A stretch of 18,311 nucleotides of DNA from an uncultured Thermococci archaeon (GCA_964487115.1 CAZAPD010000101.1:1-18311); one strand, 5' to 3'. Positions 1,008-13,000 are shown, counted from the stretch's first letter. Translations and numbers: made by a program. The notes: generated by a model not told the origin, from the letters alone.

Positions 1008-1613
1008 ATGAGCCGTATGCACTTTTATCTTAAGGAACGCCTTGAAGATGTCAGGAAAAGGGTTCTCTACGAACAGTATAAAGCCCAAAAAATACCTGTA
1101 TGGGAAAGAATTGCCTTAACCTGGGCTGTTTTATTTCCCTTCTGGCTGGTAGTTAGTGGAAACACTCATCCCGGCAATCTAATAATTGGAGCCGTTACAA
1201 CCCTCATAATCTCTTCCTTCATGAGGGATATGCTAACGAAAGATATACGGCCCAGGGGCAACATACTCCAGAAAGCTATATATTTCCTGCTGATATATGC
1301 CCCTCAGCTCACAGTGATCATGATGTTCAGAATTCTGGAGAGTAGCATCAAAGTTGCAAAGAACGTCATATTTATGGATATAAACCCAGGGGTAGTCAAA
1401 ATAAAAACTGACCTAAACTCAGATACTGGGATAGCTGTTCTTGCCAACTCCATAACCCTAACTCCCGGAACGTTAACCCTTGATGTTAAGAGGAAACTTG
1501 GAGAAACATATCTCTACGTCCACTGGATTGATGTTGAAACTCTGAATAGAGAAAAGGCTGGAGAAAAAATAAAGGGGGATATTGAGGAATGGTTGAAGAG
1601 AATCTTCTGGTAG
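1008..1613 (+). CDS. mnhE: Mrp/Mnh antiporter subunit E (MbhA-like)
   Basis: INPGVVKIKTDL, LANSITLTPGTLTLD and LYVHWID are the MnhE signature; two N-terminal TM helices. Confidence 0.93.
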   Translation: MSRMHFYLKERLEDVRKRVLYEQYKAQKIPVWERIALTWAVLFPFWLVVSGNTHPGNLIIGAVTTLIISSFMRDMLTKDIRPRGNILQKAIYFLLIYAPQLTVIMMFRILESSIKVAKNVIFMDINPGVVKIKTDLNSDTGIAVLANSITLTPGTLTLDVKRKLGETYLYVHWIDVETLNREKAGEKIKGDIEEWLKRIFW

Positions 1614-1861
1614 GAGCTGTTATGATACTGACATTTACCAGTCTATTGCTCACCTACCGCGTGCTTTTTGGTCCAACAACACCAGATAGAATAGTGGGAG
1701 TTAATACCATAACAACAAAAGTGGTAGTCATGCTTGCGATTTTTGCTGTTATCAGGGGAGAATACTACCTCCTTGATTTATCTATAGTCCTTTTGATGGT
1801 GAATTCAGTTGGAGGTCTAATATTCGCCAAATACCTTGAGAGGGGTGGGGCAATTGATTGA
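1589..1861 (+). CDS. mnhF: Mrp/Mnh antiporter subunit F (MbhB-like)
   Basis: YRVLFGPTTPDRIVG motif, 3 TM helices, ends AKYLERG. Confidence 0.92.
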   Translation: MVEENLLVGAVMILTFTSLLLTYRVLFGPTTPDRIVGVNTITTKVVVMLAIFAVIRGEYYLLDLSIVLLMVNSVGGLIFAKYLERGGAID

Positions 1862-2168
1862 GTATCCCATGCTGATCTTTGGGGAGACCATAATGATTTT
1901 CGGCGCTCTGGGAATACTCCGATTCCCTGATGTCTATACGAGACTTCATGCAGCGACCAAATGTGATACTGGAGGAGCCATGACAATTTTAATAGCTCTG
2001 GCTATAACAACCAATGCTCCCGCCCTTATAAAGTTCAAGTTTCTGGTTCTGGCATTCCTCATAGCTCTGGTTAACCCCATGGTCTCCCATGCAATAGCCC
2101 GGGGTGCATACAAATACGGAATAAAACCGAAAGTCGTGGTGGATATGTATGCTTGGGATAATCCATGA
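1854..2168 (+). CDS. mnhG: Mrp/Mnh antiporter subunit G (MbhC-like)
   Basis: GILRFPDVYTRLHAATK and NPMVSHAIARGA. Start placed at TTG 1854 after the GGGGTGGGG SD; the ORF track starts at 1836. Confidence 0.92.
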   Translation: MIEYPMLIFGETIMIFGALGILRFPDVYTRLHAATKCDTGGAMTILIALAITTNAPALIKFKFLVLAFLIALVNPMVSHAIARGAYKYGIKPKVVVDMYAWDNP

Positions 2169-2403
2169 TATCCTCCTGCTTATGATGGTAATTCTTTCAG
2201 TGGCAATAATAGAGGAGAAGAACCTCGTAAATGCTGTGGTTGAATACATTCTCCTCGGATTAACTTTTGCAGTTGTCTTGTTCCAGCTTGGAGCGCCAGA
2301 TGTGGCATTATCCGCCATAGTGGTTGGGGCTGTGGTAGTTGGACTCTTTCTCTTCACGATAGGGGAGGTGAGGAAGTGGGATTTGAATACAGATACAGAA
2401 TAG
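2149..2403 (+). CDS. MbhD-like small membrane subunit (DUF4040 type, MrpA C-terminal part)
   Basis: LGAPDVALSAIVVG motif, 3 TM helices, position in the operon. Confidence 0.85.
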   Translation: MLGIIHDILLLMMVILSVAIIEEKNLVNAVVEYILLGLTFAVVLFQLGAPDVALSAIVVGAVVVGLFLFTIGEVRKWDLNTDTE

Positions 2404-2636
2404 GGGGATTGGTTATAATCACCGCACTGGCAACCCTGCTGTTTTCCCTTGATTACTCAAGGAGCGGATTTGGAAGCTATTCCTATTATATCTCCAACTG
2501 GCAGGATGTTGGGATTCCAAACCTTGTAACGGCAATAGTTGCAGACTGGCGAGCCTATGATAGCCTTGGAGAGGCCACACTGCTCTTCACAGCTGTTACA
2601 GGTGTGTATCTCCTTTTAGGAGGGAAGAAAAAATGA
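2376..2636 (+). CDS. MbhE-like small membrane subunit
   Basis: PNLVTAIVADWRAYDSLGEATLLFTA matches the N-x-V-T-A-I-x-x-D-x-R-x-x-D-T/S-L-G-E motif. Confidence 0.87.
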   Translation: MGFEYRYRIGGLVIITALATLLFSLDYSRSGFGSYSYYISNWQDVGIPNLVTAIVADWRAYDSLGEATLLFTAVTGVYLLLGGKKK

Positions 2637-3040
2637 AGATGAGTCTGGTCGTTAGAACAACTACTAAACTCGTAAGCCCCTTCCTCGTAGCTTATGCAGC
2701 CTATCTGATGATTTATGGACAATTAAGCCCGGGAGGGGGTTTTCAGGCTGGTGTAATACTTGCTGTAAGCGTTATATTACTCGTCGTCTCCCAGGGATAT
2801 AAGAGCGTTAAAAAGAGATTCAAACTGAAAGAAGTCGGTGTAATCGAGGGGATTTCAGCCTTAGGTCTGGTACTCCTTGGATTAACCGGTACAATCTTTG
2901 GAGGATTTTTCTACAACTTCCTTAAAGGCACGTGGAACGGTGGTACTGTCCCACTCTTCAACATAAGCGTGGGGCTGAAAGTGGGAGCGGCCTTTGTGAT
3001 GGTTTTCTATGTTATGCTGAGGTGGGTTGAAAGTGATTGA
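2633..3040 (+). CDS. mnhB: Mrp/Mnh antiporter subunit B (MbhF-like)
   Basis: GQLSPGGGFQAG, IEG and NISVGLKVG motifs; 4 TM helices. Confidence 0.92.
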   Translation: MKMSLVVRTTTKLVSPFLVAYAAYLMIYGQLSPGGGFQAGVILAVSVILLVVSQGYKSVKKRFKLKEVGVIEGISALGLVLLGLTGTIFGGFFYNFLKGTWNGGTVPLFNISVGLKVGAAFVMVFYVMLRWVESD

Positions 3041-3326
3041 GGCTGAAATGGTAGGAATAACAATCATGCTGGTGGGGTTCTACGGTCTAATGAGCAAAAA
3101 GGATCCAATAAAGATAGTTCTTTCGATAAACATAGTTTCGGTGGGTCTGGTTCTATTTTTTGTCGGAACAGGATGCATAAAAGAGGCAAAGGCTCCAATA
3201 ATGCCTCGAAAGAGCGTTGTTGATCCACTGCCAGCGGCTCTGATGCTCACTACCCTCGTGGTTGATGTCGCCATAACAGCATTAGCACTTACGATAATAC
3301 TGAGGATGAGGAGGAGAATGACATGA
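3033..3326 (+). CDS. mnhC: Mrp/Mnh antiporter subunit C (MbhG-like)
   Basis: KKDPIKIVLSINI and VDPLPAALMLTTLVV. Start GTG 3033 or TTG 3027. Confidence 0.92.
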   Translation: MIEAEMVGITIMLVGFYGLMSKKDPIKIVLSINIVSVGLVLFFVGTGCIKEAKAPIMPRKSVVDPLPAALMLTTLVVDVAITALALTIILRMRRRMT

Positions 3327-4834
3327 TTTCCCTCCTCGTCTCGATACCCATGCTGTTTGCTTTCATGCTCGTTCTTGTCGATATTCTGGCTAAATCACAA
3401 AGAATTAAAACCAAACTTGTGCCTGCCATATATCTTCTCGGTTCATTTCTGCCGTGGCTGGTTCTGTGGACTTCCTGCAAAAACATGCCTGTAGACGAAG
3501 TAGTAGGTAACTGGACCAGAATGGGGGGCATTGAGATCGCTCTTGACAATTACAATTTTTATTTCATACTCGGAGCACTGGTGCTGTTCTCCATGGTCTC
3601 CATTTACTCTTTTGGACACTTCAGGGAAGGAAAAGCATATTCCGTCATCTTGCTTATGGAGGCAGGCGTACTTGGAGCGTTTATAAGCCGTGACCTTTTC
3701 AACTATTACATATACATGGAGATAGCATCAGTATGTGCATTTATCCTGACTGCACTTTCTGAAGAAAAGGGTGCAAAAAAAGCGGCCTTTCGTTATCTGG
3801 TTTTTTCTCTAACGGCTTCCTATCTCTTTATATTCGCCCTCGGCATTATATACCTGAAAACGGGCTATCTGAATCTAAACCTAATAAAGGGGTCTGCAAA
3901 TTCAAAGGAAATAAACGTGGCAATTGGCATAGCATTCTCAGCTCTCATTCTTAAAGCAGGGATATTTCCTCTCCACTTCTGGCTTCCGGATGCCCATTCC
4001 AAAGCCTCCACTCCAGCAAGTGCTCTCCTCTCAGGTGTTGTGGTCAAAGTCCCTATTTACGGCATGCTGCTCCTTTTCTACGCATTCCCTATTGGAGAAA
4101 TGATGCGAAAAGCACTCTTTACTGTTTCATTCCTTTCAATCTTCAGCGGACTACTCGGTGCCCTCCTTCAGATCAATGCAAAGAGGCTTTTGGCATATTC
4201 AACCGTATCCCAGCTCGGCTATGTCCTCCTCGGCCTTTCGACAGGTAGTATCTATGGAGCCATATATTACTCCTTTGCCCACATGCTCTTCAAAGGCGGC
4301 CTCTTTCTCGGAGTTGGCTCTCTAACTGATGCCCAAAGTACAAAAGACTTGAGAGAGCTCAGTTACAGAGGAAACAGGAGCATTATGATTGCTGTGCTGC
4401 TTTTGAGCCTGGCACTTTCAGGAGTCTCCCCCTTCATAACTGCCTATAGCAAAAAACTAATAATGGGAGATATCACAGGTTCAGGTCTTTTCTTGCTGTA
4501 TGCCGCCACAATTGGCACTATGCTATACGCCATCAAACTCAACTACCTCCTCTCAGAACCCGGAAGAAATGGAAGTGCAAAAGCTCCCTCTTCACTAATA
4601 CTTGCACTATTAACACTGCTCCTTGGTATCTATATGAATCCCTCGATGAACCCTGCCGATTGGGGACTTCTTGTACTGGCATCCGGTATTTTCATCCTCC
4701 TCAGGAAATTTAAAGTTCTGGAGGAGATTCCTCGGTTTGAACAGGTTCGAGAATTCGGAAGAGAACTCAATATATACATGGTCACCTTCTTTCTCTTTGT
4801 GCTTGCAATGATGCTAATACAGAGGCTTCAGTGA
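3323..4834 (+). CDS. mnhD: Mrp/Mnh antiporter subunit D (MbhH/NuoN-like proton-translocating subunit)
   Basis: DLFNYYIYMEI (conserved Glu), KAGIFPLHFWLPDAH, SALLSGVVVK, KRLLAYSTVSQLGY, HMLFKGGLF; about 14 TM helices. Confidence 0.94.
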   Translation: MISLLVSIPMLFAFMLVLVDILAKSQRIKTKLVPAIYLLGSFLPWLVLWTSCKNMPVDEVVGNWTRMGGIEIALDNYNFYFILGALVLFSMVSIYSFGHFREGKAYSVILLMEAGVLGAFISRDLFNYYIYMEIASVCAFILTALSEEKGAKKAAFRYLVFSLTASYLFIFALGIIYLKTGYLNLNLIKGSANSKEINVAIGIAFSALILKAGIFPLHFWLPDAHSKASTPASALLSGVVVKVPIYGMLLLFYAFPIGEMMRKALFTVSFLSIFSGLLGALLQINAKRLLAYSTVSQLGYVLLGLSTGSIYGAIYYSFAHMLFKGGLFLGVGSLTDAQSTKDLRELSYRGNRSIMIAVLLLSLALSGVSPFITAYSKKLIMGDITGSGLFLLYAATIGTMLYAIKLNYLLSEPGRNGSAKAPSSLILALLTLLLGIYMNPSMNPADWGLLVLASGIFILLRKFKVLEEIPRFEQVREFGRELNIYMVTFFLFVLAMMLIQRLQ

Positions 4835-5310: not shown

Positions 5311-6456
5311 GTGAATGTAATTGGTTATGTCTTCATAATCATCGCCGTTGGAAGAATCCTTGCAGAGATATTTGAAAGGTTAGGATATCCTGGCTTTCTG
5401 GGCGAGATTTCAGCAGGACTTATTTTAGGTGTAATCTTTGTCGACCTGCCAAGGGATGAAATGAGTCTCTTAGCTCAGTTTGGGATCTTCTTCCTCATGA
5501 TATATGCCGGTCTTGAACTCACCCCTGAGGAAGTAAGGCTCGGGGGAAGGAAGAGTTTTCCGATATATGTAGCGACGTATTTAGTGATGCTCTTTATAAC
5601 GCTACCTTTCACTGGATATTCACTCTCATATGACAGTCTGGTCGTTGCTGCGATACTCTCTGTAGCATCTGCTCCAATAGTGATAACCCTTGCAAGATTC
5701 TTTGGGAAGGAATTTCTTCATGTTGCACTTTCCTATGCAGTTATAAGTGAAGTTGGGAGCCTTGTAATTCTATATCTCCTCATAAACTTCGAATTACACC
5801 ATCTCAGCTATACAGGCCTATTCCTTGAATTTGTGAAAGATATACTCTTCCTGGGTATCGTCCTCGGGTTGAATTACATTATAGGCATACAGCATAAGGT
5901 TCAGATAATCAGAGCCCTAAGGAGGCTCAAGAGCGATGAGGCAGTTTTTGGAGTATTCATGATACTCTCAACATCTCTGGCTCTTATAAGCGAGGAAATT
6001 GGCCTCCATTTCAGCATTGGTGGGTTTCTTGCAGGTCTGCTCCTCCACAGTGACCTCGTTGGCACAAAGCAGTTTGAGAGGCTTCATACCATAATATCAG
6101 GAATAACCTACGGCATCTTTGCTCCAATATTCTTTGCATGGAGAGGCATTAACTTTGAGACCGAATTTTCCCGCGAGGTGATATACTTCTTTGTGCTGAT
6201 TTACTTCGTTAGAGTACTCCTAACGACGCTCTTCGTGTGGAAAGATAACTTCAAGAGCTCGATAGTCCGAGCCACAGGAATAGCAAGCTTTGGTGTCCTC
6301 GGCTTACTCGTTGGAGAGCTCGGTTATGAGCATGGCATCTTAAGCGCCCACATGTATGCCTTGGCTTCCCTTGCCAGTATAATGGGAATATTCATCTCTG
6401 CAACAATCGGTCGTATAGTCTCATACATCAACGAAAGGCAGAACATAGAGATCTGA
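5311..6456 (+). CDS. Cation:proton antiporter, CPA2 (NapA/Kef-like), no RCK domain
   Basis: ERLGYPGFLGEISAGLILG, LMIYAGLEL, GLHFSIGGFLAGLLL, GIFAPIFF; 12-13 TM helices; SD GGAGG before the GTG. Confidence 0.88.
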   Translation: MNVIGYVFIIIAVGRILAEIFERLGYPGFLGEISAGLILGVIFVDLPRDEMSLLAQFGIFFLMIYAGLELTPEEVRLGGRKSFPIYVATYLVMLFITLPFTGYSLSYDSLVVAAILSVASAPIVITLARFFGKEFLHVALSYAVISEVGSLVILYLLINFELHHLSYTGLFLEFVKDILFLGIVLGLNYIIGIQHKVQIIRALRRLKSDEAVFGVFMILSTSLALISEEIGLHFSIGGFLAGLLLHSDLVGTKQFERLHTIISGITYGIFAPIFFAWRGINFETEFSREVIYFFVLIYFVRVLLTTLFVWKDNFKSSIVRATGIASFGVLGLLVGELGYEHGILSAHMYALASLASIMGIFISATIGRIVSYINERQNIEI

Positions 6457-6650: not shown

Positions 6651-7124
6651 ATGAGCTGGACTACGCCCAAAAGGGCATTCCTTGGCGCTGCATCGGCCGA
6701 AGGCGGGACAAAACTAAATGCCTTTGATAATGCATTGTTAAAGCTGGGTATTGGAAATGTCAATCTCGTCAAGCTCAGCAGTGTTATTCCCGCACACATA
6801 GAATGGATGGATGAAGTGCATAACGTTCCAGTGGGTATGTTACTTCCGACAGTTTATGCCCATATAGAGAGTGATGAGCCGGGCTCAACAATAAGCGCAG
6901 CCTTAGGCGTCGGAATCAGCGAAGGAAACGAGGGTGGTCTCATATACGAGTACTCCGGCTACTGCACCAAAGAAGAAGCTGAAGAGATGGTGCGCAGAAT
7001 GGTTGAGGAAGGCTTCCGTGTCCGGGGATGGAAGCTCGGAGAATTTAAAGTAGCCTCAGCCGAAGCGACTGTTAAAGATAAGCCTGTCGCTGCTTTGGCA
7101 GTTGTTGTAATGTTTCCATACTAA
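6651..7124 (+). CDS. pdaD: Pyruvoyl-dependent arginine decarboxylase
   Basis: LNAFDNALLKLGIGNVNLVKLSSVIP contains the Ser-Ser self-cleavage site; ISAALGVG and GLIYEY; SD GGAGGT at 6637-6642. Confidence 0.95.
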   Translation: MSWTTPKRAFLGAASAEGGTKLNAFDNALLKLGIGNVNLVKLSSVIPAHIEWMDEVHNVPVGMLLPTVYAHIESDEPGSTISAALGVGISEGNEGGLIYEYSGYCTKEEAEEMVRRMVEEGFRVRGWKLGEFKVASAEATVKDKPVAALAVVVMFPY

Positions 7125-7174
7125 ATACCATGTCATTAAAAATTCAGGGGGTGGTCATATGGGAGGTGAGGACG

Positions 7175-7543
7175 ATGAAGGGTGTAGAAAGTCCGCTCGG
7201 GATGCATGTTATCCTCGACCTCTACGAATGCGATCCCGCTATTCTGGACAACATAGAAGAGATAGAGAGAATCTTAACAGAAGCCGCTGAAGTGGCGAAC
7301 TCCACAATTATTGATAAGCGTTTCCATAAATTTTCCCCGCAGGGTGTTTCTGGGGCTGTTATCGTTTCTGAAAGCCACATCACAATTCACACATGGCCAG
7401 AGCATAGATATGCATCAGTTGATGTTTACACCTGCGGAGATCATACGATGCCCCTTAAGGCAAGTGAGTATATAATTCGAGAGCTAAGGTGCAAACGGCC
7501 TGCTCTGGTTAAAGTTGACAGGGGTTTGCTCTTCAGAGAGTGA
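7175..7543 (+). CDS. speD: S-adenosylmethionine decarboxylase proenzyme (class 1B)
   Basis: GMHVILDLYEC, HKFSPQGVSG, SESHITIHTWPE (Glu-Ser cleavage) and DVYTCG. Start moved to ATG 7175 after the SD GGAGGTGA at 7162-7169; the ORF track starts at 7130. Confidence 0.92.
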   Translation: MKGVESPLGMHVILDLYECDPAILDNIEEIERILTEAAEVANSTIIDKRFHKFSPQGVSGAVIVSESHITIHTWPEHRYASVDVYTCGDHTMPLKASEYIIRELRCKRPALVKVDRGLLFRE

Positions 7544-7585
7544 AGTTTTTAAGCTCTCCCTCTTTTTCCCAAACAGGTGATGCTC

Positions 7586-8434
7586 ATGGGATTTAACGAT
7601 AAAGAAAGAGCCTTTATTGAGTGGTATCCGAGAGGTTATGGTGTTGGATTTAAGGTCAAAGAGAGGCTTTTTGAGATTCAAACTAAATACCAGAGGCTTG
7701 AACTTTATGAAACCGAAGGATTCGGAAAACTCCTTGTCTTAGATGGTACTGTCCAGCTTGTTGAGATTGGAGAGGAAAGCTACCACGAGCCCCTTGTCCA
7801 CCCTGTTATGCTCGCCCACCCCAATCCAAAAAGTGTTCTTGTTATCGGTGGAGGCGATGGAGGTACTCTGAGGGAAGTCCTTAAACATAAAACAGTGGAG
7901 AAGGTTGTAATGGTCGAGATTGACGACGCTGTTATTGAAGTTTCTAAACTTTACCTGAATATAGACAGAGGTGCCTTTGATGACCCAAGAGCGAAGGTTA
8001 TTGTGGGAGATGGTGTTGAGTATATCAAAAATGCCAAGGAAAAGTTCGATGTGGTCATCATAGACTCAACCGATCCTGTTGGTCCTGCGAGGATGCTGTT
8101 TTCCGAAGAGTTCTATAAAAATGTGTATAACGCTCTGGATGAAAAAGGATTAATGATAACTCAAGCTGGCAGTGTTTATCTCTTCACCAACGAGCTTTTA
8201 GATGCACACAGAGAGATGAAGAAAGTTTTTGAGAGGGTTTATTACTTCAGCTTCCCGGTTATTGGCTACGCCTCACCATGGAGCTTTCTTGTTGGAATTA
8301 AAGGGAGCATAGATTTTACAAAAGTCGACCTGAAAAGAGCCGAAAGTTTAAACTTGACATACTATGATCCAGAAAGACATGAAGCTCTCTTCCAGATGCC
8401 AAAGTACATTAGAGAACTTCTCGAAGGAAGTTAA
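7586..8434 (+). CDS. speE: Polyamine aminopropyltransferase (spermidine synthase family; probably acts on agmatine)
   Basis: [38 protein letters not shown]. Start ATG 7586 after AGGTGA. The agmatine preference is inferred from the known Thermococcales aminopropylagmatine route. Confidence 0.95.
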
Positions 8435-8754
8435 AGCATTCCCTTTGCCTCTTTTTCGAAGCTTTTTATAATTTCCTCCATTTTCGAGAGGAGGGAATCC
8501 AGAGCATCTTTTGGTGCTCTTGAACGGTAGATGTATCCCAACCATCCCCTGTTTATGAGCTCTCGCTCAATTAACCCAAGCTCAAGGAGGTGTTTCAGCT
8601 TTTCCCTGACGATTCTCTCAGATAGCCCAAGTTTTTTTGATATCTGCCTCGGTGTGAGCTGTTCCCTACGAAGGAGAGAGTATATTCTTATCTCGGAGCT
8701 TGTGAGTTCAAATTTCTCAATTGCCATGGACAGCGTTTTTAAAAGCTCCTCCAT
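8431..8754 (-). CDS. TrmB-like winged-HTH transcriptional regulator (DNA-binding domain only)
   Basis: [12 protein letters not shown]...[32 protein letters not shown]...YIY; C-terminal amphipathic helix. Start ATG 8754 or GTG 8763. Confidence 0.88.
8441..8469 (+). terminator. Possible oligo-T terminator for the polyamine cluster
   Basis: CCCTTTGCCTCTTTTTCGAAGCTTTTTAT just after the speE stop, inside the convergent gene. Confidence 0.35.
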
Positions 8755-8802
8755 CTCAACCACTTATGAAATTTTTTCTTCATACCTGTTCACATTTTTG
8801 TG

Positions 8803-8822
8803 GAAAGGTTTATAAACCTTTC
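8803..8822. promoter_or_regulatory. Perfect 20-bp palindrome, bidirectional BRE-TATA
   Basis: GAAAGGTTTATAAACCTTTC is its own reverse complement, so it reads GAAAGG-TTTATAAA on both strands between divergent genes. Confidence 0.8.
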
Positions 8823-8845: not shown

Positions 8846-9640
8846 ATGTTACGAGCAATGCTCAGAAATACAAGAATAATCGACGGCAGGTCTTTCATTG
8901 GAATGGGGCTCCTCGGTCTTGCTATGAATATCAGAAATTTTCCCGATGTTAAAAATGCTTCTATAGTCCTGATTTCCCTCATACTTTATGTTGCATATGC
9001 ATTCTCGCTCAACAACTGTTTTGATGTCGATACTGATGTTCTAAACCCAAGAAAGCGGAGTAAAAATCCCATAGCCAGCGGTGAGCTCAGCTTTAGAGCA
9101 GGAATTATTTTCTCCATGATACTGGCTGTTTCAGGAATTATGCTCGCCTCGCTTCTTGGCAAGGAAGAGTTTCTCATATACCTCTCGATGGTTCTTCTGG
9201 CAACTTTATATTCTGCTCCTCCAAGGCTGAAGGCGCAACCAATACTGGACGTAATTTCACACGGAATATTTTTTGGAATGATACCATTCTTCTATGGAGC
9301 TTGCTTTGATGGAGTATTGACCAGATATGAGGCTGTAATAGGCTTGGCCCTCCTGCTGTACTCTTTTGCTATGGAGCTGAGGAATCACCTTGAGGATTAT
9401 GAGAGTGATATAAAAGCCAGCCTCAGGACAACACCAATCACCATCGGAAAAAGCACATCAGAAAAGCTTGCCGCTATATTTTCCGGACTCTCGATAGCAC
9501 TACTCCTGATTAGCTTCAGCATCCCTTTTGGCGCCCTCGGCATCATGGTTGCAGGAATTAAAGTCAATTATAGAACTCTCGACAGCTTTATGGTCCTCCT
9601 TTTAGCTTTACATGCCATAAGAACATTATCGGGTACATGA
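8846..9640 (+). CDS. UbiA-superfamily intramembrane prenyltransferase
   Basis: NNCFDVDTD (first Asp-rich motif), NPIASG, YSAPPRLK, NHLEDYESD (second motif) and TTPI; about 8 TM helices. Start ATG 8846 after GTGGTGG; the ORF track starts at 8828. Confidence 0.9.
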   Translation: MLRAMLRNTRIIDGRSFIGMGLLGLAMNIRNFPDVKNASIVLISLILYVAYAFSLNNCFDVDTDVLNPRKRSKNPIASGELSFRAGIIFSMILAVSGIMLASLLGKEEFLIYLSMVLLATLYSAPPRLKAQPILDVISHGIFFGMIPFFYGACFDGVLTRYEAVIGLALLLYSFAMELRNHLEDYESDIKASLRTTPITIGKSTSEKLAAIFSGLSIALLLISFSIPFGALGIMVAGIKVNYRTLDSFMVLLLALHAIRTLSGT

Positions 9641-9656
9641 TAACGGGGGGTTGGCA

Positions 9657-10793
9657 GTGAAAATAGCCCTTGTAAGCGACTGGTACTATCCAAAAATCGG
9701 TGGCGTAGCAACACATATGCATCACCTCGCACTGAAGCTTAGGGAGAGGGGGCATGATGTTACCGTTGTGACAAACGGTAGGGAAACCAGCAGGGAAAGA
9801 GAGCTAAAAGAGCTTGGTATTGGACTCATCAAAATTCCCGGAGTGGTGAGTCCAATCCTTGAGGTTAATATCACATACAGTCTCAAATCCACAAAAGAGC
9901 TCAATGAGTTCCTGAAGGACTTCGATGTTATACACTCCCACCATGCCTTCACGCCCTTGGCTTTAAAGGCTGCAAAGGCTGGCAGGAAGATGAAAAAGGC
10001 AAGTGTACTAACAACACACAGCATTTCATTCGCCCACGAGTCAAAACTCTGGGAAGCTCTGGGCCTGACATTTCCCCTATTCAGTAATTACCTCAAATAT
10101 CCCCATAGGATAATTGCAGTCAGCAAAGCTGCCAGAGCATTTATAGAACACTTTACGGAAACTCCCGTGGAAATCATACCAAACGGTGTTGACGATGCAG
10201 TCTTCACTCCGAGAAGGGAAAAGGAGAAGATCAAGGAGAAGTTTGGTATTGAAGGAAAAGTCGTACTGTATGTAAGCAGAATGAGCTATAGAAAAGGACC
10301 ACATGTTCTGCTCAATGCATTTTCCCAGATTGATGATGCAGTTCTCATTATGGTTGGATCTGGAGAGATGTTACCTTTCCTCAGAGCACAGGCAAAATTT
10401 CTGAAAATCGAAAACAGAGTAAAATTTGTAGGCTACGTAAAAAATGAAATACTTCCAGAGATCTTTGGAATGGCAGATGTGTTCGTCCTCCCATCAATAA
10501 CAGCTGAAGCTTTTGGGATCGTAATACTCGAAGCCATGGCTTCAGGCTTACCTGTTGTTGCAACGGACGTTGGAGGAATTCCCGAAATTGTGAAGGAGAG
10601 CAAAAGCGGTTTGCTCGTTCCTCCCGGCAATGAACTTGAACTGAGAAATGCTATTCAAAAGCTCATTCTGGATGATGATCTCAGAGAATTGCTCGGGAGC
10701 AACGGCAGAAAAGCCGTCGAGGAAAGATACTCATGGAACAGAGTTACCGAAAAAATAGAAAAAACTTATGAGGATGTCATCTCAAAAATTTAG
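9657..10793 (+). CDS. GT4 glycosyltransferase, PIG-A/GPI3-like
   Basis: SDWYYPKIGGVATH, IHSH, TTHS, IIPNGVD, SRMSYRKG and EAFGIVILEAMASG (E-x7-E). Start GTG 9657 or TTG 9651. Confidence 0.92.
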   Translation: MKIALVSDWYYPKIGGVATHMHHLALKLRERGHDVTVVTNGRETSRERELKELGIGLIKIPGVVSPILEVNITYSLKSTKELNEFLKDFDVIHSHHAFTPLALKAAKAGRKMKKASVLTTHSISFAHESKLWEALGLTFPLFSNYLKYPHRIIAVSKAARAFIEHFTETPVEIIPNGVDDAVFTPRREKEKIKEKFGIEGKVVLYVSRMSYRKGPHVLLNAFSQIDDAVLIMVGSGEMLPFLRAQAKFLKIENRVKFVGYVKNEILPEIFGMADVFVLPSITAEAFGIVILEAMASGLPVVATDVGGIPEIVKESKSGLLVPPGNELELRNAIQKLILDDDLRELLGSNGRKAVEERYSWNRVTEKIEKTYEDVISKI

Positions 10794-10804
10794 CGGGGAT
10801 TAAA

Positions 10805-11515
10805 GTGCGCATGGAGAACATAACATGGGAGGAGTTCGATAAAATCAGAGAGAGCGTCAACACTGTGATTCTGCCTATTGGGAGTATTGAAGCACACGGA
10901 AGGCATCTGCCCCTCGGCACGGATGTCTTTGCTCCCGTGGAGATAGCAGAGAGAATTGAAGTAAAGCTGAGGGAGAAAGGCACAGAGATTCTAATTGCAC
11001 CTCCGATATGGTATGGGCACAGTTTTGTTCTCAACGTCTTTCCCGGTACCATAAATGTCAAGGCAGACACCCTGAGGAGATATGTGCGTGATATTATAGA
11101 AGAATTTGCAGAGGATGGATTTAGAAAGGTAATCCTGCTGAACGGCCATGGAGGAAACTACTATCCCCTTGTAGAGGCATGTGAGGATGTTGCCGAAGAA
11201 TACGAGGTAGAGATATGGCTCATAAATTGGTGGATAGACTTTAGGGAGGATATACTAAGCATATGTTCCTCCCAAGGGCATGCAGGGGAGGACGAAACCT
11301 CCGTTATCATGGCTATAAAACCAGAGCTCGTCAGGATTGAGAAAGCGGTCGGGGAGAAGAGAACCTCAAAGGTCAGAATAATCAGGAAGGATATTGGCCT
11401 TGAACTCTTTCCTGACGGAGTCAATGACAACCCAAAAGGAGCAACCAAAGAAAAGGGAGAAGCAATTCTGGATGTTATCAGTGAAAAAATCGCCCGTTTA
11501 ATTTTAGAGTCTTAG
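10805..11515 (+). CDS. Creatininase-family metal amidohydrolase
   Basis: PIGSIEAHGRHLPLGTD, NGHGGN and GHAGEDETS provide the full E/H/D/H/E metal-ligand set. Confidence 0.92.
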   Translation: MRMENITWEEFDKIRESVNTVILPIGSIEAHGRHLPLGTDVFAPVEIAERIEVKLREKGTEILIAPPIWYGHSFVLNVFPGTINVKADTLRRYVRDIIEEFAEDGFRKVILLNGHGGNYYPLVEACEDVAEEYEVEIWLINWWIDFREDILSICSSQGHAGEDETSVIMAIKPELVRIEKAVGEKRTSKVRIIRKDIGLELFPDGVNDNPKGATKEKGEAILDVISEKIARLILES

Positions 11516-11528
11516 AGGCGAAGTACCT

Positions 11529-12161
11529 ATGGAAACCGTACTTGAGGAGATAGAAAAAAGAATAAAGCGGCTTGAGGCTGAGATAGAGCTGGCCGAACTA
11601 AGCTTTGAACGTATGGAAAAAAGCTTGAAAGGAGAACAACTGCTTAAAAAAGCCAGTTCGTATTCTTTTTATTATCTTATCTTTATGGTTATATGGATGA
11701 TCGCTGGTTTGCTCTTTCTTGTTGGGCTTAAAAACAGACTGCCCACAACAAGCACTTTTCCTGTTGTTAAGTATGGACTGCTCTTTATTCTGATGTTTCT
11801 CATCCCTGTGGTCTACTTTGTGTGGATAAACAGAGAAACAGAGGAAATAACTACTGGAATAGAGCTCAGAGAAAAATGGGCGAGAACTGTAATCACTCGA
11901 TTTTATATTCCCCTGAGAGAGGCTTTGGAAAAAGGAGATGAGGCAAAACTTGCAGAGCTTGCAGATTCCCTTCTTGAGAATATGGAGCTCGCACAGGCTG
12001 TTGAGAAGGTTCATGAGGGGGATCCGAAGATAATGGCCTATGCCCTTTACCTCTACATTCGACGCTCCCCTGAACTGAAAAATGAGATCAGAGAAGTCTC
12101 GGAGAGAATTACAAATAAACCCCTAAAAAAACTCCTTCTGTTGGCTATGAAAGATTTATAA
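11529..12161 (+). CDS. Hypothetical membrane protein (N-terminal coiled coil, 2 TM helices, soluble helical C-terminus)
   Basis: 210-aa ORF 13 nt after the creatininase gene; heptad pattern LEEIEKRIKRLEAEIE; two hydrophobic segments. Confidence 0.8.
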   Translation: METVLEEIEKRIKRLEAEIELAELSFERMEKSLKGEQLLKKASSYSFYYLIFMVIWMIAGLLFLVGLKNRLPTTSTFPVVKYGLLFILMFLIPVVYFVWINRETEEITTGIELREKWARTVITRFYIPLREALEKGDEAKLAELADSLLENMELAQAVEKVHEGDPKIMAYALYLYIRRSPELKNEIREVSERITNKPLKKLLLLAMKDL

Positions 12162-12193: not shown

Positions 12194-13000
12194 ATGAAAT
12201 TTGAGGTTCTAAGCAGGGACGATATGATAGAGCTTTCAAGAGAGCTCAGCAGAGCTGGCATAATGAACAAAACAAAGGAAGAAGTCAGATGGGAGGTACA
12301 GCATTTTATGACAGTCAGAGAGCGCTATTCTGAGCTCGTCAGGATATCAGAAAAGTATCCATTTATCTGGGAGAAGTTGGAGGATATTCGTCAGGCTTTT
12401 GATGCAATCCTCTCAAACTGGAAGCCCGGAGAGGAGAAAAAAGTAGAGGATCTGTTTGACGAAGCCGACATAAACAGGCTTATAGTTCTGACAGCACTAA
12501 TTGAGGGAAGTTATATTGAAAATGAGGAAAAGTTAAAGCTGCTCAAAAAACCTGAACTGGAAGAACTCATTCTTGAGCTTAGATTTCCTGTGGAAGAGAT
12601 TGAAGATCTTGAAGAATTTGAGAGAGAGCTCAATGGCAGTCTTGTAGCGGAATTCACCCTCATGAAGCACTACTATGTTGAAGTGATGGAGATTGAGAAG
12701 GAGCTCATACAGAGGGCTGTTGATATAGCAGAGGACTATGTAACCGAAGAATCCTTAGTTGATGCCCTTTTTGTTGGTATAGCAAAATCTGTGCTGGCTG
12801 ATGTAATACTTCAGCTGGCTGAGGAGAAGAGAAAGAAGAACGAGCTGATAGAGGCACTGCTCTCAAGAGAACCAATAGTGATTGAAGGCAGAAGAGAGAG
12901 AATAAACCTGTATTTTGACGAAGAAGCTATAGAAGACTTCCTAAAGGAACTGCAAGCTCTTGGATATCTTAAAATCAAAGGCAATAGAATATGGCTTTAA
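12194..13000 (+). CDS. Acidic hypothetical protein with possible C-terminal winged-helix-like segment
   Basis: 268-aa ORF with SD; very Glu-rich; ends IEDFLKELQALGYLKIKGNRIWL. Confidence 0.8.
   Translation: MKFEVLSRDDMIELSRELSRAGIMNKTKEEVRWEVQHFMTVRERYSELVRISEKYPFIWEKLEDIRQAFDAILSNWKPGEEKKVEDLFDEADINRLIVLTALIEGSYIENEEKLKLLKKPELEELILELRFPVEEIEDLEEFERELNGSLVAEFTLMKHYYVEVMEIEKELIQRAVDIAEDYVTEESLVDALFVGIAKSVLADVILQLAEEKRKKNELIEALLSREPIVIEGRRERINLYFDEEAIEDFLKELQALGYLKIKGNRIWL

Follow-up and report, generated by a model that had tools for sequence, protein, structure and literature searches.

What do a membrane prenyltransferase, a glycosyltransferase, and an amidohydrolase encoded side by side in an archaeon produce, and do the three belong together? 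The question is raised by an 18,311-nt stretch of DNA from an uncultured Thermococci archaeon (GCA_964487115.1 CAZAPD010000101.1:1–18311), analyzed over its whole length and referred to here as the window. Its plus strand carries genes for a UbiA-family membrane prenyltransferase of 264 aa (8846–9640; PF01040, 118 bits), a 378-aa GT4 glycosyltransferase of an archaeal PIG-A-like group, which we call GT4a (9657–10793; PF00534/PF13439), and a creatininase-family metallo-amidohydrolase (10811–11515; PF02633, 218 bits). Gene calls and Pfam matches bear out that the three are co-oriented with short gaps, 16 nt between UbiA and GT4a and 11–17 nt, depending on the start codon chosen, between GT4a and the creatininase homolog. 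The initial annotation had seen in them a three-enzyme pathway to a glycolipid resembling the core of eukaryotic glycosylphosphatidylinositol (GPI). We found that UbiA and GT4a, usually joined by genes for a predicted flippase and a divergently oriented regulator, are a conserved module. In our estimate, this module has an even chance of decorating archaeal phospholipid head groups by glycosylating and then prenylating them, which would give the orphan lipids of Thermococcales that are heavier by 68 Da (C5H8).

Conservation of the Module

Each gene was searched in all 99 Thermococcales genomes and counts were taken from match coordinates; only ortholog-level matches were counted (GT4a in 66 genomes, UbiA in 57, the creatininase homolog in 57), weaker paralog rows being dropped. 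Phi coefficients were computed over the 75 near-complete genomes (≥95% complete) and are descriptive, kin not being independent. GT4a is present in 56 of the 57 genomes that hold the UbiA ortholog, at most 1.2 kb from it in 54 and split from it by contig ends in the other two, and the phi value of the pair is 0.78. An insert of ~0.9 kb separates the two genes in 36 of these 54 adjacent pairs and encodes a ~305-aa flippase-like protein of the AglD2/YbhN type (PF03706/TIGR00374, LPG_synthase_TM), in the place that the 16-nt gap (9641–9656, plus strand) occupies in the window; the flippase was not found in this genome, which is 96.5% complete. The divergent gene upstream of UbiA, encoding a TrmB/Lrs14-like winged-helix regulator (8431–8763, minus strand; PF01978 above cut-off), has an ortholog in 39 of the 99 genomes, lies head-to-head with UbiA in 37 of these 39, and stays with it even at loci where the module sits apart from speE and the creatininase gene; it is probably part of the module. 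Among the 45 loci obtained in a scan of named genome contigs, 11 close GT4 loci are from outside Thermococcales: six have UbiA and the flippase beside the GT4 gene (L157, L158, L160–L163), one has the flippase at a contig end, and four have neither.

The three window genes are contiguous in 36 of the 99 genomes, and contiguous without the flippase in nine. The trio, taken by the initial annotation as a unit, is thus not what is conserved: the conserved unit is UbiA–GT4a, adjacent in 54 of the 57 UbiA genomes and usually accompanied by the flippase, whose presence does support the role in a membrane glycolipid head group that had been proposed. In four genomes (L052–L055) the UbiA stop codon is followed, at a gap of 0 nt, by an in-frame GT4 start; UbiA–GT4 fusions, as 644–657-aa open frames, were ruled out by the in-frame stop between the genes in all four loci checked.

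The Prenyltransferase

Three UbiA genes of this genome score above the Pfam cut-off. One of them (G000:C16) encodes the DGGGP synthase (NF009522, 495 bits against a cut-off of 353). The window enzyme scores 77 bits with this model and its ortholog occurs in just 57 of the 99 genomes, which is not the universal distribution of such an enzyme, and it was rejected as DGGGP synthase; the concern attached to the initial annotation, that it might be the only DGGGP synthase of the genome, does not hold. The third paralog (L003:1411–2334, G000:C19) lies behind a helix-turn-helix gene and is nearest to PRK13591, below cut-off. For the window UbiA, no NCBIfam model reached its cut-off.

With its PF01040 match, its helical membrane fold, and its Mg/diphosphate-binding residues, the window enzyme belongs to the UbiA superfamily, and among solved structures AfUbiA comes closest to it in both sequence and fold (E 3.8e-24; template-modeling [TM] score 0.75–0.77, for a model with pLDDT 88). 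AfUbiA (PDB 4TQ3–4TQ6) and DGGGP synthase (6M31) share with it the fold (TM 0.73–0.78), both Asp-rich motifs, and the Tyr-Ser-Lys triad, but only 20–23% identity. The AfUbiA residues that bind Mg and prenyl diphosphate according to the available part of PMC4106721 (R22, N68, D72, K146, D198, D202, and Y139/S140) have as equivalents R10, N56, D60, K129, D184, D188, and Y122/S123, invariant in 14 of 14 aligned sequences, R10 being matched by position, outside the printed alignment. Because all these ligand-binding residues are invariant, alignment and model together predict that the window UbiA is an active prenyltransferase. The same source reports that AfUbiA binds geranyl diphosphate (GPP) as well as dimethylallyl diphosphate, and that its acceptor is not known. 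DGGGP synthase shows the family to be able to O-prenylate a lipid hydroxyl; sugar is not among the UbiA acceptors listed in the accessible portion of the review PMC9385802. For the +C5H8 lipids, we regard the window UbiA as a good candidate. The earlier proposal that it prenylates a head group stands to this extent, the enzyme not being the DGGGP synthase and its distribution matching these lipids in four species out of four (see below).

The Glycosyltransferase and Its CE4-Linked Paralogs

GT4a had been held to follow eukaryotic PIG-A motif by motif. The PIG-A-specific model PF08288 gives 16.7 bits with it, against a cut-off of 27, over positions 50–85 of 90, and this cut-off is passed in none of the 99 genomes (best 26.1 bits). 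The match is selective, this genome giving no other up to E 1; two of 14 control genomes give matches at E 0.05. Compared by eye with the tables in the available part of PMC2446393, GT4a fits the relaxed archaeal motif CM1a, as do its paralogs GT4b and GT4c, and does not exactly fit the eukaryotic CM1, CM5, CM6, CM8, and CM11. The claimed likeness therefore survives as the relaxed CM1a and a weak, selective PF08288 match, and not as the strict eukaryotic motifs. The same paper, in the part available, already lists archaeal PIG-A-like GT4s and judges them closer to ordinary GT4s. With the eukaryotic PIG-A/PIG-L system GT4a has in common the GT4 fold and the PF08288 match, and hexosamine-PI lipids are reported in Thermococcus in the accessible literature; it differs from PIG-A in having no C-terminal membrane anchor. 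Its closest solved relatives are BshA and PimA, and a GT4-profile search of 50% representatives, swamped by multi-domain GT4s, returned nothing recognizable as PIG-A. GT4a is predicted to be a lipid head-group glycosyltransferase; its action on such a head group may resemble that of PIG-A, but we do not class it as PIG-A.

Two paralogs of GT4a occur in relatives, GT4b (~50% identical to GT4a) and GT4c (~29%), their genes being arranged in the order flippase–GT4–CE4 deacetylase (PF01522), and a full-length CE4 ortholog is found in 73 of the 99 genomes, two weak rows being dropped. The genome studied here has a GT4c–CE4 pair (G000:C8:12495–14427, L181:1496–3428), which in relatives usually has a flippase gene ahead of it. 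In a quickly built tree that comprised 96 GT4s and no PIG-A, GT4a and the other UbiA-linked GT4s, including those from outside Thermococcales, form one clade (SH-aLRT 96); GT4b is sister or neighbor to GT4a, and GT4c groups with Methanococcoides and gammaproteobacterial proteins (96). The flippases of the UbiA and CE4 modules also fall into separate clades. We consider the GT4c–CE4 pair the best candidate for a hexosaminyl (GPI-core-like) archaeal lipid, and the CE4 module a better source of hexosamine lipids than the creatininase homolog. The pair is widespread in Thermococcus-type genomes, and by eye the N-terminal motif of GT4c comes slightly closer to the PIG-A pattern than that of GT4a does. 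We also observed flippase–GT4–CE4 in a Methanococcoides metagenome-assembled genome (MAG; L166:3973–6891) and GT4–CE4 in gammaproteobacterial MAGs (L165, L169, L171–L177), in several behind an MprF-like gene; by NCBIfam, these CE4-linked GT4s are not GpgS orthologs.

Operons combining a GT4 with an AglD2/YbhN (UPF0104) flippase are already known to modify lipid head groups, the available part of PMC12713373 describing gpgSDF of Pseudomonas aeruginosa, which produces first GlcNAc-PG, then GlcN-PG, and hexSDF of Clostridioides difficile. Their three-part layout is that of the Thermococcales flippase–GT4b/c–CE4 module. The GT4 and the flippase are shared with them by the relatives of the window module (36 of the 54 pairs), but not by this genome. 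The module is this type of operon with a prenyltransferase replacing the deacetylase, no NodB/CE4-type deacetylase being linked to it, and GT4a is not an ortholog of GpgS (NF053787, 115 bits against a cut-off of 480).

Genes and Published Lipids

The lipid series named in the initial annotation, with hexose–HexNAc, hexose–hexosamine, and +C5H8 head groups, is confirmed in print, in the parts of the papers that were available and to which all lipid data given here are limited. Thermococcus kodakarensis has archaeol with Hex-PI, Hex(NH2)-PI, and 68+Hex(NH2)-PI (PMC3906577, which cites a 1992 paper on a GPI-core lipid), PHexHexNH2 making up ~41% and its +C5H8 form 5% (PMC7356043). For Pyrococcus yayanosii, PMC7356043 gives PHexHex at 4–7% and its +C5H8 form at 5%, with no amino form and no HexNAc/HexN two-sugar lipid, and it reports P. 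furiosus to be without these lipids; T. barophilus has both series at 1–1.5% (PMC9294538). Hydrolysis of T. barophilus lipids released glucose, not inositol (PMC9294538), which puts the GPI-core identity in dispute. That study looked for +C5H8 species with one sugar and found none, which fits the link between the UbiA and GT4a genes, and the presence in P. yayanosii of PHexHex and its +C5H8 form without an amino form points to a neutral hexose as the GT4a sugar. Literature searches, which did not extend to subscription journals or to most supplements, turned up no enzyme assignment for the +C5H8 or hexosamine lipids.

The 45 loci from the scan of named genome contigs are all from MAGs and none is from a species with lipid data; for the latter, named protein records were used. 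UbiA orthologs were identified in T. kodakarensis (P0027), P. yayanosii (P0023), and T. barophilus (P0465), and no record was seen for P. furiosus among the matches listed (best 120 of 171; members of 11 clusters). CE4 records belong to T. kodakarensis (P0540) and T. barophilus (P0600), both with hexosamine lipids, and none was seen among the matches listed (best 120 of 1950) for the two Pyrococcus species, which are without them. Among the four species the creatininase homolog has a record in T. barophilus only (P0150; members of 14 clusters), and none was seen among the named records for T. kodakarensis despite its ~41% hexosamine lipid. Genes and lipids thus agree in four species out of four for UbiA and +C5H8 and for CE4 and hexosamine, and in three out of four for creatininase and hexosamine. 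From accession order and length, P0027 is inferred to be TK1324, for which the available supplement of PMC4247193 gives 795 nt and a primary start site lying 8 nt upstream, with the glycosyltransferase gene TK1323 coming after it.

The Creatininase Homolog

The homolog shares the binuclear metal ligands of the creatininase/MftE/ArfB/IolN family (PF02633), all invariant (E27, H29, D38, H113, and E162). It stays below every NCBIfam cut-off, with 144 of 235 bits for the creatininase model TIGR04448. Because glycine stands at the position of creatininase E122, the creatinine-binding glutamate, it is likely to act on a substrate other than creatinine, and identification as creatininase (EC 3.5.2.10) was rejected on these two grounds. 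Its gene adjoins GT4a in 39 of 57 genomes, which are spread over five of the six genus groups of Thermococcaceae, but in 55 of 57 it adjoins ds1 (11529–12161, plus strand), a Thermococcaceae core gene present in 95 of 99 genomes that encodes a membrane protein with no Pfam or Atlas family (an Atlas search at 0.9 gave no match). Phi values are 0.08 with GT4a and 0.29 with UbiA. The homolog is absent from 13 of the 47 near-complete genomes with UbiA and GT4a, and GT4a from 11 of the 46 near-complete genomes with the homolog; in three, both are present but far apart. No creatininase gene lies within the stored flank of the 11 close non-Thermococcales GT4 loci. Decoupled from GT4a and tied to ds1, the homolog was not retained as a member of the pathway; it is probably an optional neighbor of the speE–ds1 site, with another substrate, and not part of the module. 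In genomes without the module the gene follows speE directly, so that its product may act on an amide in polyamine metabolism. At the same site, a diverged copy of the module flippase stays in ~29 genomes (e.g., L091:568–1452, L117–L121, L124), with or without the creatininase gene and even where UbiA and GT4 are elsewhere or absent. A second, longer creatininase-family protein (~370 aa; L128:4141–5256), encoded between zinc dehydrogenases in six genomes, possibly takes part in sugar or inositol breakdown.

Proposed Function and Alternatives

In the mechanism that we propose, GT4a would act on archaetidyl-inositol or archaetidyl-hexose and attach a sugar, which is most likely a neutral hexose, UbiA would transfer a C5 dimethylallyl unit to the resulting two-sugar head group by the usual Mg-assisted ionization of the allylic diphosphate, and transport of the product across the membrane would fall to the flippase. 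Hexosamine versions would come from the separate flippase–GT4b/c–CE4 module, and the UbiA described here would prenylate these as well. The direct basis of this proposal consists of gene anatomy, co-occurrence, catalytic residues, and lipids in print, from which every substrate and product is deduced. A bolder claim, to which we give a little less than an even chance, is that UbiA would be the first member of its family to prenylate a sugar, placing dimethylallyl on hexosyl- or hexosaminyl-archaetidylinositol, including the eukaryotic GPI-core head group; Thermococcales would hence have two parallel PIG-A-like glycolipid modules, one ending in deacetylation (CE4) and one in prenylation. Several observations weigh against the proposed mechanism. 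The flippase is absent from 18 of the 54 adjacent UbiA–GT4a pairs, this genome among them, GT4a stands alone at three Sulfolobales loci, and the creatininase gene is in line with the module in 36 genomes out of 99, 13 near-complete genomes having GT4a and creatininase and no CE4 match. Since AfUbiA binds GPP too, a preference for a C5 donor is not implied, and GT4a, being sister to the CE4-linked GT4b, may use UDP-GlcNAc. The gene–lipid match concerns four related species, with weak absences taken from named records only, and its chance probability for UbiA, present in 57 of 99 genomes, is roughly 8%. In PMC9294538 and PMC3906577, C5H8 is a mass assignment only. In PMC7356043, HexPI and HexNAcPI tetraethers are tentatively reported in P. 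furiosus, and T. kodakarensis has PHexHex only in traces, yet possesses the GT4 neighbor.

The original reading, in which GT4a makes GlcNAc-archaetidylinositol, the creatininase homolog de-N-acetylates it in place of PIG-L/CE4, and UbiA prenylates the product, is kept alive by the tentative HexNAc-PI of P. furiosus, by the sisterhood of GT4a and GT4b, and by the 13 genomes just mentioned; genus g4 has GT4a and creatininase with no full CE4 match, T. barophilus combines the homolog with hexosamine lipid, and the gene adjacency across genus groups and the intact metal site, with Gly for the creatinine-binding Glu, are in its favor. We nevertheless find this reading, and with it the homolog as a substitute for PIG-L, quite unlikely, given the phi of 0.08, the frequent occurrence of each gene without the other, the lack of a creatininase gene at the 11 outside loci, and the GT4–CE4 pair elsewhere in this genome; moreover, hexosamine lipid is abundant in T. 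kodakarensis, with no creatininase record seen, and P. yayanosii is without HexNAc or HexN two-sugar lipids. On the other hand, the module may modify lipids while UbiA transfers a long chain or uses another acceptor, as for the C25 chain of C20–C25 diethers or with a lipid-linked donor in the manner of DPPR synthase-type systems, +68 Da arising from another enzyme. Long donors and hydrophobic acceptors are indeed usual among UbiA enzymes, many genomes have further UbiA paralogs, T. barophilus has C20–C25 (PSGD) cores, and the window UbiA is weakly similar to DPPR synthase families and to 8J8J. The DPPR synthase score (35 of 234 bits) is, however, far below cut-off, PSGD is unlisted for T. kodakarensis and P. 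yayanosii, both with a window-type UbiA, hydrolysis of the +68 fraction gave mostly the ordinary DGD core, and every genus g3 genome has one or two UbiA genes, hence few alternatives; we regard this alternative as unlikely. It is very unlikely that the GT4 and the flippase work with a dolichol carrier, in protein N-glycosylation or for a surface polysaccharide, UbiA being incidental or supplying the carrier: AglD2/YbhN flippases and GT4s occur in archaeal glycosylation too, and UbiA is absent from 10 of the 66 GT4a genomes, but the module holds no other glycosylation genes, UbiA is nearly always with GT4a (56 of 57), the two moving together, and the Agl16 score is 105 against a cut-off of 575.

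Upstream Region and Neighboring Genes

The same-strand run extends beyond 11515 to five genes, ds1 and ds2 following at gaps of 13 and 32 nt; ds2 (12194–13000, plus strand) is a conserved, co-oriented Thermococcaceae gene with no family assigned. A perfect 20-bp palindrome (8803–8822) with a promoter resembling a B recognition element (BRE) and TATA box could serve both directions; its TATA-like core (8810–8815) does not vary among the 14 upstream regions aligned, and the full palindrome is not kept. Because of this invariant core, a single upstream promoter for the co-oriented genes is plausible; the earlier picture of three genes behind one promoter is too short by two genes. An inverted repeat (8765–8784; arms of 6 bp, spacer of 8 nt), whose right arm and three left-arm positions are invariant in the same 14 regions, is a candidate operator of the regulator. 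A scan for sigma-70 promoters and terminators, of a type unsuited to archaea, gave chance-level results only. Elsewhere in the window lie a polyamine cluster (6651–8434; pyruvoyl arginine decarboxylase, SAM decarboxylase, and aminopropyltransferase) and, judged by translation alone, a cluster of Mnh/Mrp-type Na+/H+ antiporter subunits (1008–4834) and a separate cation/proton antiporter (5311–6456).

Significance

Reports of prenylated (+C5H8) and hexosamine phosphoglycolipids in Thermococcales date back to 2014, and the present analysis names a single gene for each step, by which an orphan lipid modification becomes testable genetically in a tractable organism. The CE4-linked paralog, which also occurs in a genome of Methanococcoides, offers a direct candidate for an archaeal GPI-core-like lipid and bears on the origin of GPI biosynthesis. 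If the proposal is true, sugar head groups would join the acceptors of the UbiA family, and the orphan AfUbiA branch would gain a lead.

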